Positions 18,700 through 39,293 of a stretch of DNA of 64,000 nucleotides are shown here, piece after piece. How positions within the stretch are numbered: position 1 is the stretch's first letter; every line of letters starts with the position of its first letter. The stretch is from Eledone cirrhosa (lineage: Eukaryota). The stretch is taken from contig OZ024742.1 in NCBI GenBank assembly GCA_964016885.1, positions 228,222,001 through 228,286,000 of the forward strand, written 5' to 3'. The position numbers and the translations under genes were made by a program. The notes under the pieces are model-generated. The model saw nothing but the letters and a program-made list of their open reading frames with translations. It had not been told where the DNA came from and did no database searches.

Positions 18700-18908
18700 T
18701 ATATATATACATATACATACATACATATTATATATATATACATAGATATTATATATATATACATAGATATTATATATATATACATAGATATTATATATAT
18801 ATATACATACATATATATATATATATATATATATATATATATATATATATATATATACATATATATACAATGAAAAAATGGCGTGCTGCGTTGTTACGAG
18901 TGTGATAC

Positions 18909-18953
18909 ATATGAATGAAAATAGACCGAGAAACGGTCTATTTTCATTCATAT
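18909..18953. repeat. Perfect 20-bp-arm palindrome with a one-sided ~40 bp unique extension (18868-18908), inside (TA)n
   Basis: ATATGAATGAAAATAGACCG-AGAAA-CGGTCTATTTTCATTCATAT. Confidence 0.9.
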
Positions 18954-19474
18954 ATATACATATATATTATATATATATACATATATATATTATATATATA
19001 TACATATATATTATATATATATTATATATATACATATATATATATATATATATACATATATATATATATTATATATATATACATATATATTATATATATA
19101 TACATATATATTATATATATATATATATATACATATATATATATATTATATATATATATACATATATATTATATATATATATATACATATATATTATATA
19201 TATACATATATATTATTAGATAAAATATATACCATTTCTTCTCCCAAATAGCATAATTAACCATATAAAAAATCAATTAAACCAAGCTATAAGAATAAAG
19301 GCTCTTATGAAGAAATCTCCGACAAATAACCGAAAGTAGCCTCTTCGCGGTGGCCCCAATAGAGTATTTATCCAACATTTCGACAGCATGTAGAAACTGA
19401 CTAAATATACCATCAACCATACACAATTAGGTGTAAATTCAAACTTAGAAGAAATGTGTACATACTGTAATTAT

Positions 19475-19552
19475 ATCTCTACCATGGTTTCATCCGTATT
19501 TTTAGACATCCAATTAATAGGAAATGTCCAGAGTTAGGATTCATCAGGAGAC
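19475..19552 (-). ncRNA. Type I hammerhead ribozyme motif, in element ~19215-19560
   Basis: Minus strand reads GTCTC-CTGATGA-ATCC...GGAT-GAAA-CCATGG-TA-GAGAT. Complete core, GUA triplet, palindromic stem III. Confidence 0.85.
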
Positions 19553-19994
19553 AAACTCATATATATTATATATATACATATATATTATATATATACATAT
19601 ATATTATATATATACATTTATACATGTATATTATATATATAGATATATATTATATATATACATATATATTATATATATATATATATTATATATTTATATA
19701 CATATATATTATATATATATATATACATATATATTATATATATATATATATATATATACATATATATTATATATATATATACATATATATTATATATATA
19801 TATATATATTATATTTAATACATTAACAGAGAAAGCTTTAAGCAATACTCCGACCGGCTTCCGTCTCACTCAACAAACATTAGGATATACCTTAGTATAA
19901 TCCCAATTATACGTTTGGGGTGCTAACTATACGTATTTTACGGATAGCCAGTTGTATTATTTTATATGAGACATAATTAAAATACATCTCTCTT

Positions 19995-20116
19995 TCCAAA
20001 CGATTGTTTCATTATAAGTTTTCTACAAATTGGGAAAATAATGTCCTGGTTATGTAGAAGCCTACACATAGTCCGTAGGAATATATGTAGGTGGGCACTT
20101 ATAAATCATCAGTGGA
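19995..20116 (-). ncRNA. Type I hammerhead ribozyme motif with branched stem II, in element ~19815-20250
   Basis: Minus strand reads TCCA-CTGATGA-T-TTATAAGT...ACTTATAA-T-GAAA-CAATCG-TT-TGGA. Two hairpins lie inside stem II; U-U at its base. Confidence 0.7.
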
Positions 20117-20253
20117 TGCCCGACAAATATCGATATAAAAAAAACCTTACCGATATTAATGTCCAGCGATGGTACCCCTCCGTGCTAGAATGACCGCCAA
20201 ATTTGAAATTCCAGCAGTCTCACAATGAGAAATATCACACTGCCATCATTATA

Positions 20254-35080: not shown

Positions 35081-35118
35081 ATATTGAACTCCTTTAACCA
35101 TCTTTTGATCTTATATTA

Positions 35119-38076
35119 TATATATATATATATATATATATATATATATATATATATATATACTATATATATATATATATATATATATATATATACTATA
35201 TATATATATATATACTATATATATATATATATATTATATATATACTATATATATATATATATACTATATATATATATATATATTATATATATACTATATA
35301 TATATATATATATATATATATATATATATATATATATATATATATATATATACTATATATATATATATATATATATATACTATATATATATATATATACT
35401 ATATATATATATATATATATACTATATATATATATATATATAGTATATATATATATGTATATATAGTATATATATATATGTATATATAGTATATATATAT
35501 ATAGTATATATATATATATATATATATAGTATATATATATATATATATATATATATATATATATATATATATAGTATATATATAATATATATATATATAT
35601 ATATAGTATATATATATATATATAGTATATATATATATATATATATATATATATATATATATATATATATATATAGTATATATATATATATATATATAGT
35701 ATATATATATATATATATATATATATATATATATATATATATATATAGTATATATATATATATATATATAGTATATATATATATATATATATATATATAT
35801 ATATATATATATATATATATATATATAGTATATATATATATATATATATATATATATATATATACTATATATATATATATATATATATATACTATATATA
35901 TATATATATATATACTATATATACATATATATATATACTATATATATATATATATATATACTATATATATATATATATATATAGTATATATATATATATA
36001 TATATATATATATATATATATATATATATATATATAGTATATATATATATATATATATATATATATAGTATATATATATATATATATATAGTATATATAT
36101 ATATATATATATATATATAGTATATATATATATATATATATATAGTATATATATATATATATATATATATATATAGTATATATAGTATATATATATATAT
36201 ATATATATATATATATATAGTATATATATGTATATATATATAGTATATATATGTATATATATATATATAGTATATATATATATATATATAGTATATATAT
36301 ATATATATATATATATATAGTATATAAATATATATATATATATATATAGTATATATATATATATATATATATATAGTATATATATATATATATATATATA
36401 TATATACTATATATATATATATATATATATATATATATATAGTATATATATATATATATATATATATATATAGTATATATATGTATATATATATAGTATA
36501 TATATGTATATATATATATATATATATAGTATATATATGTATATATATATATATATATATATATATATATATATATATATATAGTATATATATATATATA
36601 TATATATATATATAGTATATATATATATATATATATAGTATATATATGTATATATATATATATATATATATATATAGTATATATATATATATATATATAT
36701 ATGTATATATATATATATATATATATGTATATATATATATATAGTATATATATATATATATATATATATATATATATATAATATATATATATATAGTATA
36801 TATATATATATATATATAGTATATATATATATATATATATAGTATATATATGTATATATATATATATATATATATATATAGTATATATATATATATATAT
36901 ATATATGTATATATATATATATATATATATGTATATATATATATATAGTATATATATATATATAGTATATATATATATATATATATATATGTATATATAT
37001 ATATATAGTATATATATATATATATATATATATATATGTATATATATATATATATGTATATATATATATATAGTATATATATATATATATATATATATAT
37101 ATATATATATATATATAGTATATATATATATATATATATATATATAGTATATATATATATATATATATATATATATGTATATATATATATATATATATAT
37201 ATATATATGTATATATATATATATATATATATATATATGTATATATATATATATATATATATATATATATATATATAGTATATATATATATAGTATATAT
37301 ATATATAGTATATATATATATAGTATATATATAGTATATATATATATAGTATATATATATATAGTATATATATATATATAGTATATATATATATATATAT
37401 ATATAGTATATATATATATAGTATATATATATATATATATAGTATATATATATATAGTATATATATATATATATATATATAGTATATATATATATAGTAT
37501 ATATATATATATAGTATATATATATATAGTATATATATATATATAGTATAAATATATATAGTATATATATATATATAGTATATATATATATATATATATA
37601 TAGTATATATATATATATATATAGTATATATATATATAGTATATATAGTATATATATATAGTATATATATATATAGTATATATATATATATATATATAGT
37701 ATATATATATATATATATATAGTATATATATATATATAGTATATATATATATATAGTATATATATATATATATATATAGTATATATATATATATATATAG
37801 TATATATATATATATATAGTATATATATATATATATATATATATAGTATATATATATATATACTATATATATATATATATACTATATATATATATATATA
37901 TATATATATAGTATATATATATATATATAGTATATATATATATATATAGTATATATATATATATATATAGTATATATATATATATATATAGTATATATAT
38001 ATATATATAGTATATATATATATATATAGTATATATATATATATAGTATATATATATATATATATATATATAGTAT
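35119..38076. repeat. ~3 kb interrupted (TA)n array
   Basis: Its interruption pattern parallels the array starting at 29161. Confidence 0.95.
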
Positions 38077-38235
38077 ATATTGTTATACTTTGGGAGGGTC
38101 ATGTTGCCAATAAGAAACACACGCACCAGTTGCTTTCACTTCAATTTAATTTAATATATATTTATAAATTTACAAATTTATAAATTTCTGGTTGGTTGGT
38201 TGGTTCCACAACCAGATAGTTGTTTATATATATAT

Positions 38236-38280
38236 AGTCATAGTTCTTTCGTCACACACTCTGTGACCTCTTCAGTGACT
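38236..38280 (-). ncRNA. Minimal hammerhead motif
   Basis: Minus strand reads AGTCA-CTGAAGA-G-GTCACA-GAGTG-TGTGAC-GAAA-GAAC-TA-TGACT. Confidence 0.82.
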
Positions 38281-38406
38281 GGGGATTTCTTTCTTCGTTT
38301 CTGTGCCTTTCCTTTCTTCTATCCTACGCCATTTTGTTTGTGTGTCACAAACAAAATGGCGTAGGATAGAAGAAAGAAAGGCACGGAAACGAAGAAAGAA
38401 ATCCCC

Positions 38407-38451
38407 AGTCACTGAAGAGGTCACAGAGTGTGTGACGAAAGAACTATGACT
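38407..38451 (+). ncRNA. Minimal hammerhead motif
   Basis: AGTCA-CTGAAGA-G-GTCACA-GAGTG-TGTGAC-GAAA-GAAC-TA-TGACT; CUA triplet. Confidence 0.82.
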
Positions 38452-39293
38452 ATATATATATAAACAACTATCTGGTTGTGGAACCAACCAACCAACCAGA
38501 AATTTATAAATTTGTAAATTTATAAATATATATTAAATTAAATTGAAGTGAAAGCAACTGGTGCGTGTGTTTCTTATTGGCAACATGACCCTCCCAAAGT
38601 ATAACAATATCGGTTTCAACACACGATTTCAGATAAAGAATCTTGCTAAACAAATTCAGAAACGAAATATAGTATATATATATATATATATATATATATA
38701 GTATATATATATATATATATATATATATAGTATATATATATATATATATATAGTATATATATATATATATATAGTATATATATATATATATATATAGTAT
38801 ATATATATATATATATATAGTATATATATATATATATATATAGTATATATATATATATATATATAGTATATATATATATATATATATAGTATATATATAT
38901 ATATATATATATAGTATATATATATATATATATATAGTATATATATATATTATATATATATATAGTATATATATATATATATAGTATATATATATATATA
39001 TAGTATATATATATACATATAGTATATATATATATAGTATATATATATATATATATATATATATATTATATATATATATACATATATATATATATATATA
39101 TATACATATATATATATATATATATATATATATATATATATATATATATATATACATATATATATATATACATATATATATATATATACATATATATATA
39201 TATACATATATATATATATATATATATATATATATATATAAATATATATATATATATATTATATATATATATATATATATATATATATATATA

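Follow-up and report, generated by a model that had tools for sequence, protein, structure and literature searches.

Paired arms of Penelope-like insertions in (TA)n tracts of Eledone cirrhosa point to two priming events on one RNA

How a retroelement comes to lie in the genome as a palindrome with a tail on one side only is the question raised by a 64,000-nucleotide stretch of the Eledone cirrhosa genome (assembly GCA_964016885.1, contig OZ024742.1, positions 228,222,001 to 228,286,000 of the forward strand; hereafter the window). The window is rich in C2H2 arrays, RTE-type LINEs (long interspersed nuclear elements) and (TA)n, and an earlier note on its sequence had described four inserts in (TA)n that share this layout. 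All four, termed A to D, were found as placed (Table 1), each being a head-to-head insertion of a Penelope-like element (PLE) in (TA)n, with paired arms that are 95-99% alike, not identical, and a tail of ~41-88 nt. The note had likened them to the inverted pseudo-long terminal repeats (pLTRs) of Penelope, and an inverted pLTR with a one-sided tail is indeed a known PLE architecture, described in passages of PMC3846280 and PMC8557442; its origin is called open in parts of PMC8557442 and PMC11167929. Here, twin internal priming on one sense RNA probably produced each insert. The basis of this reading is observed directly: arm ends are fixed or clustered, long ends are paired with short ones, the 5' extents of the arms vary, and partner arms share clusters of A-to-G changes.

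The inserts represent three PLE families, with B and D in one (BD), C in a second and A in a third, and element positions are counted from the A of each family's ATG. In family BD, a 27-mer whose last base is +21 gave 24,983 exact matches, of which 11,265 run into TA at +26 (the short end), 10,477 continue and the remaining 3,241 are unclassified at that point; at +86 (the long end) 11,464 run into TA versus 438 continuing. The native sequence at both BD sites is AATAT-CG, and both ends are ATAT. Family C ends at +2 (TAT, short) and +90 (AT, long), and in family A the short end lies at ATAT and the long end is scattered around +44..+50. Every short arm of the four window inserts stops at a TAT/ATAT that merges into (TA)n, as the earlier note had it, and these ends are fixed rather than random, thousands of copies sharing them. 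A sister family of BD (loci L404-L423, L094 and L309) has the +26 end as in BD, with long ends scattered from +71 to about +90: lacking the distal ATAT, 772 plus 37 copies stop at +71 and 511 pass it, and of 20 copies that pass, the majority have their stop within +72..+90, at AT or a single T.

Such ends could in principle be fold-back artefacts of sequencing or assembly, and the region is hard to assemble, with an N gap and a 3.4-kb duplicate beside insert C. This explanation is very improbable, given the asymmetric fixed ends in thousands of copies, the arms that do not overlap and the divergence between partner arms. Furthermore, three Illumina runs of another study contain 2,439, 2,473 and 2,164 reads that end at +26 into (TA)n, together with opposite-strand joints that share 2-5 letters, each supported by few start points. 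In these runs the +86 end is masked by a read-end pile (likely a restriction site), and it is visible in 44 contigs of run X1, which may be the source of the assembly. At positions 6580 and 6640 of L096, opposite-strand ends are linked by reads, either +86 with +26 or +26 with +26; these joined ends are tail-to-tail neighbours in short TA tracts. The assembly duplicate itself likely accounts for window 28520-32112 versus 34671-38080, where a 200-N gap is followed by the 3.4-kb repeat (94.7% identical), which covers the short arm of insert C and its TA array.

Long and short ends are combined in a regular way. The sample for each family was the first 100 matches on contig C1 by position (71 BD loci and 62 C loci). 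In it, head-to-head pairs joined a long end to a short one in 34/35 BD and 38/42 C cases (p 2e-9 and 6e-8 versus free choice). Within these pairs, the arm with the greater 5' reach is the short one in 17 of 34 (BD) and 16 of 38 (C) and the long one in 10 and 7; in 7 and 15 the two stop within 15 nt of each other. The 5' extents of partner arms are positively correlated (rho 0.37 and 0.75), and in some long pairs both arms end near one distant point. The arms do not overlap in L125, L161, L240, L242, L159 and L162, and tailed arms can be as short as +59..+86, +65..+86, +77..+86, +9..+90 or +11..+90 without overlapping their partner. The 20-bp arms of insert A, which the earlier note had taken for the minimal product, are undercut by L162, where a tailed arm of 9 nt shows no overlap with its partner. 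Short arms are also found alone; the pairing script left 49 and 28 ends of both types unpaired, some of which are missed pairs or motif noise. On inspection, long and short arms included very short ones at about the same frequency, and the idea that a primer at the short site blocks the tailed arm was dropped as unsupported.

These extents bear on mechanisms already in print, as self-priming is proposed in passages of PMC3846280 and endonuclease resolution in passages of PMC8557442. Priming once at the tail end would be followed by snap-back or self-priming on the antisense strand, and the second end would form by a nick or by TA microhomology at the internal motif. The short arm should then lie inside the tailed arm, which fails in 33/72 long+short pairs and in the non-overlapping ones. 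Simple fold-back cannot explain short arms that reach further 5' or arms that do not overlap. Because short arms outreach tailed arms 5' and also occur alone, the short end behaves as a cDNA start site, and not as the mere product of second-end joining or a nick that the note had envisaged; the TA microhomology it invoked is present, and marks both ends rather than the short end alone. Points in favour of snap-back are symmetric centres on natural palindromes (in C at -170, with a 6-nt overlap), short fold-back patches at some joints, and locus L148, which fits either model. However, solo arms show the -170 stop as well, as do arms whose partner ends at another point, and the changes shared by partner arms lie on the sense strand, not on the antisense template. 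The non-nested pairs refute snap-back as a general route, and as the origin of these inserts it is improbable; it may cover some of the 22 near-symmetric pairs.

Priming twice on one sense RNA is further indicated by what the partner arms have in common. Subfamily variants are shared at 152 versus discordant at 30 sites in BD, and at 90 versus 7 in C. In addition, A-to-G changes are dense on the sense strand of some copies, with T-to-C almost nil and G enriched at the 3' neighbour, as expected from a reverse-transcribed edited RNA, ADAR being the presumed editor. The 26 loci examined yielded 8 insertions in which both arms carried enough changes for comparison, and in these the partner arms share A-to-G clusters with a Jaccard index of 0.50-1.0, against a between-locus mean of 0.17 and maximum of 0.5 (341 pairs); an inverted duplicate 10 kb apart with two short ends (L356/L357) and one L353 comparison spanning two different insertions were set aside. 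For example, 25 of the 28 A-to-G changes in L189 are common to both arms, the short arm extending to -544 and the tailed arm to -192, and this pattern is unique in the genome, where no other copy exceeds 82% identity. Because the short arm reaches further 5' and the changes are shared in L189, L355, L359 and L364, fold-back is excluded there. In the tandem insertion L148 (529-6892), the inverted tailed arm and the internal 5' pLTR share 35/36 A-to-G changes; the 3' pLTR, 4 kb away, is unedited.

In the mechanism that we propose, the element protein, probably dimeric, would cut the TA repeat on both of its strands, and reverse transcription would be primed twice on one sense RNA and on opposite strands, from a distal site to give the tailed arm and from a proximal site to give the short arm. 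The tail would be the RNA stretch between the two start sites. Pairing of the nicked TA end with the RNA over 1-4 nt of AT would set the exact start base inside a window fixed by the protein, both cDNAs would run to the RNA 5' end or stop earlier, and their 3' ends would be joined by microhomology or short templated patches. Apparent overlap with (TA)n is 4, 4, 3 and 2 nt at the BD and C sites, and the scatter of ends in the sister family fits a protein-set window in which pairing chooses the base; the TA-pairing step is nonetheless less sure than twin priming on one sense RNA. For the fuller scheme, in which priming is rule-bound (one start site per target strand, fine-tuned by pairing in a telomerase-like alignment), edited RNAs act as single-molecule barcodes and a second route yields whole palindromes from hairpin transcripts, we see the chances as even.

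A number of observations weigh against this account. The pairing rule has exceptions: each family includes one long+long pair, and C also has at least one short+short pair, two of the three such calls there having proved misclassified on BLAST view. An overlap of >=4 nt with (TA)n is expected at 10-15% of positions, making TA pairing modest; the family C long end overlaps by 2 nt and some sister-family ends by 1 nt, and a direct boundary test with G at +25 was weak (51/11,265 versus 29/10,477). Starts in an anole PLE are, in the relevant passages of PMC11167929, without homology to the target. As for the shared changes, L358, L359 and L364 have only 4-6 in common, gene conversion between arms could mimic sharing, and a pattern search for edited copies of family C found none. 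ADAR editing is marked by depletion of G at the 5' neighbour, and the 5' neighbours of the A-to-G sites here lack it. Finally, L379 has four A-to-G changes on one arm only and is weakly discordant, and in L353 the tailed arm carries A-to-G changes and the short arm 31 T-to-C changes.

Locus L379 would suit twin priming on two RNAs, usually from one source locus and held by an asymmetric dimer, as would the 30 and 7 common-variant sites at which BD and C partners differ and the overlap of arms by hundreds of bases, which on a single RNA needs strand displacement. Even so, two RNAs are unlikely: A-to-G clusters should be specific to a molecule, yet they are common to partner arms in eight insertions, and both the correlated arm extents and the long pairs ending near one distant point speak for a single template. 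In L353, by contrast, the changes are mirrored, as expected from a single edited hairpin RNA, and the whole palindrome was likely copied from one such RNA. That palindromes in general seldom arise afresh and are then propagated whole, by way of hairpin read-through transcripts, a view to which several D-like copies with similar centres lend some support, is about as improbable as snap-back, or slightly more so. Centres vary from copy to copy, short arms form no cluster separate from long ones (5.8% versus 5.7%; 1.9% versus 1.9%), and edited pairs are same-sense in 8 cases versus mirrored in 1, a rough ratio, as the edited copies came from A-to-G-directed searches.

Under twin priming on one RNA, the centre of each insert would be the place where two cDNA 3' ends meet. 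About half of the scored central joints have an overlap of 0-8 nt, enriched over chimeric controls, and the remainder contain short insertions, often local fold-back patches. Among asymmetric blunt or overlapping joints, an overlap of >=2 nt occurs in 5/7 and 8/11, versus 16-19% in chimeric controls, one value per joint-overlap set being an alignment artefact. In this analysis, 8 of the 35 BD pairs had no comparison pool, and the anchor filter was passed by 19 BD and 32 C pairs, 10 and 14 of them with insertions. The 5' ends cluster at about -250 in BD (11/67 arm ends), just upstream of a AAATGGCG motif that we take to be YY1-like, and at about -170 in C (32/67). Because solo arms also show the cluster, it likely marks the RNA 5' end, which would explain why mini-palindromes such as insert D are common. 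Whether the partner is the nearest copy was weakly informative, as the copies are young: the partner was strictly nearest in 3/17 and 3/26 cases, with 3 and 15 ties.

The outward-reading ribozymes that had been described for three of the inserts are borne out as hammerhead core motifs in B, C and D; insert A has none. The pLTRs of BD and C carry core motifs and stems I and II of a putative type I hammerhead (folding z -0.9 and -1.3); minimal hammerheads are treated in a passage of PMC4209133. Rfam found no hammerhead in the window, and its microRNA matches on insert D, below gathering scores, were rejected as hairpin look-alikes. No peak of arm ends was seen at the predicted ribozyme cut, with 3/67 ends in -160..-141 (BD) and 1/67 in -60..-41 (C).

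Twin priming is familiar from L1, where two target strands prime one RNA, leaving an inverted segment with microhomology at the inner joint. The L1 sites are poly(A) and a variable internal position, and the segments barely overlap, whereas the two sites found here are both internal and mostly fixed, and an overlap of hundreds of bases between the arms is the usual case. Among PLEs, Adineta Pen2a and other endonuclease-positive (EN+) elements, as portrayed in sections of PMC3846280 and PMC8557442, are similar in their head-to-head inverted 5'-truncated copy, tail at one end and (TA)n targeting, and for BD also in a tail that holds the first codons of the open reading frame (ORF); tails are 30-40 nt there and about 41-88 here. 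Those same sections propose antisense self-priming or endonuclease resolution, in contrast to the non-nested arms and sense-strand changes of the present copies. The closest biochemical parallel comes from in vitro results on the anole Poseidon PAc in parts of PMC11167929, where both strands are cut and extended, two internal start sites delimit the tail, a dimer is predicted and hammerhead cleavage is unneeded. There, the start sites are non-homologous to the target and do not differ between strands, unlike the AT motifs matching (TA)n and the use of one site of each kind in nearly every insertion found here.

The data argue against the published self-priming idea as a general route. They carry the finding of two start sites, made with a single purified Poseidon protein, over to a living genome, where it covers two more PLE lineages and a family that is non-coding. 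For the existing in vitro assay the predictions are sharp: each strand should use one site, a single RNA should serve both, and AT pairing should be involved. Hairpin-forming inserts have been seeded in this genome by the tens of thousands and are a likely source of double-stranded RNA for adenosine-to-inosine editing. A search of titles and the opening of abstracts, with subscription papers outside it, found no PLE paper on twin priming, a one-site-per-strand rule or edited-RNA barcodes. Penelope families are counted in an octopus in PMC13282606, in passages that do not describe their ends.

By its motifs rather than by reverse transcriptase (RT) phylogeny, family BD is classed as Neptune/Nematis-type. 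Its single ORF, read in frames of L091, L095 and L096, has an RT core (YSRYVDD), DKSG and, at the C-terminus, a GIY-YIG (VYSIRC...VYIGET), and its linker CIDKKCITC (CX2-5CxxC type) and endonuclease CCHH motif (C-TEGQ-C, H-AKIE-H) are of kinds defined for Neptune/Nematis in a passage of PMC8557442. Pfam RVT_1 matched the ORF at E 2e-4, below the curated cut-off, and Pfam missed the GIY-YIG fragment; sampled full-length copies are frameshifted. Partial tandem arrangement gives rise to the pLTRs, with a period of 4,162 bp in L096. An Asn/Thr/His-rich (CAA)n stretch in the N-terminal ORF (L091, L096; window 24780-25060), with frameshifts between copies, resembles the N-rich inserts described in a passage of PMC3846280. 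Insert B had been read as 385-bp arms around coding fragments, a description that needs revision: its left arm is 1,045 bp with a GIY-YIG end, and on its right an N-terminal ORF piece is joined to the pLTR across a ~2.3 kb internal deletion with a 4-nt overlap.

Family C (7,970 matches) is Hydra-type, again as judged by motifs. The 821-residue frame of L128 has a CNCRIKNKC linker (CxCx5C), HSDKT, CNLC and CLH, and the family inserts in (TA)n; no Pfam match was found for the ORF. Sections of PMC8557442 give the Hydra clade RW, DKT, the CxCx5C linker and CxxC plus CxH around the catalytic E/N, as in the C ORF, and likewise a hammerhead motif, putative in C, and (TA)n targeting, with units usually under 3 kb versus 3,917 bp here. 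Family A is a non-coding head-to-tail tandem unit of ~560 bp without a long ORF, for which no autonomous partner was found. Its short non-coding tandem unit and PLE-type ends recall the non-LTR retrozymes in a part of bioRxiv 10.64898/2026.07.22.740005; unlike them, A has CTGATGA plus a stem and no GAAA core. A type I hammerhead was not found in family A units, where GAAA is missing after stem II and the Rfam scan was negative; the units in L131 and L133 have CTGATGA and a short stem, but the place of the hammerhead GAAA is taken by GTTTC, and they may hold a ribozyme that is variant or has decayed.

The three peptides quoted in the earlier note are all present, and the question it raised, whether tails are N-termini of PLE ORFs, has a positive answer in one family of three. 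The BD tail opens the long ORF, its peptide running on into the ORF in L091 and L096. In C, MHTPVPQ instead begins a 34-codon upstream ORF that is closed by TAA before the long ORF (L128 tandem unit), and in A, MYHTRNN lies within the non-coding unit.

Table 1 Coordinates of the four inserts and related features (window positions, except for L353)
Feature	Position	Strand	Description
Insert A	18868..18953		Mini insertion from a PLE-like family of non-coding tandem units; tail 18868-18908; arms 18909-18928 and 18934-18953; 5-nt loop
Insert B, short-ended arm	23206..24250	-	Element -1124..+26, 1,045 bp; hammerhead core 23390; GIY-YIG C-terminal frame 23547-24056
Insert B, N-terminal ORF fragment	24252..25476	+	About +193..+1455
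Insert B, tailed pLTR	25473..25908	+	-382..+85; hammerhead core 25673; ATG 25824; tail 25850-25908
Second copy of insert C short-arm end	28719..29169	+	Adjoins N gap; likely assembly duplicate
Insert C, tailed arm (Hydra-type family)	33723..34440	-	Hammerhead core 33910; upstream-ORF ATG 33812; tail to +90
Insert C, centre	34441..34495		Further 5' sequence of the short arm, with repeated 20-mer
Insert C, short-ended arm	34496..35119	+	End at +2 (TAT); hammerhead core 35019
Insert D, short-ended arm	38077..38345	-	-252..+26; hammerhead core 38275
Insert D, tailed arm	38346..38670	+	-249..+86; hammerhead core 38412; ATG 38585; tail 38611-38670
L353	3874-4622 (contig C4, about 162095374-162096122)		Head-to-head pair with mirrored changes

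Elsewhere in the window, a 92-bp near-palindrome at 47934-48025, with CTGATGA on the minus strand at 47904, is possibly a small PLE insert. CTGATGA motifs at 17624, 19547 and 22449, in short islands adjoining (TA)n, are likely PLE pLTR stubs, and 19231-19454 and 22552-22762 are 77% alike in inverted orientation. Many RTE-type LINE copies with (GAT)n ends occupy 20252-21979, 39305-43778, 45639-47407 and 52602-53720; several stop directly before (TA)n, and identity is 98.7% between 39305-40256 and 41196-42153. Two ORFs with C2H2 zinc-finger arrays, at 13151-14680 and 49812-51173, are closely related to each other and have duplicated upstream DNA, and a Ty3/Gypsy-like gag-pol region in several frames spans 58867-62747.

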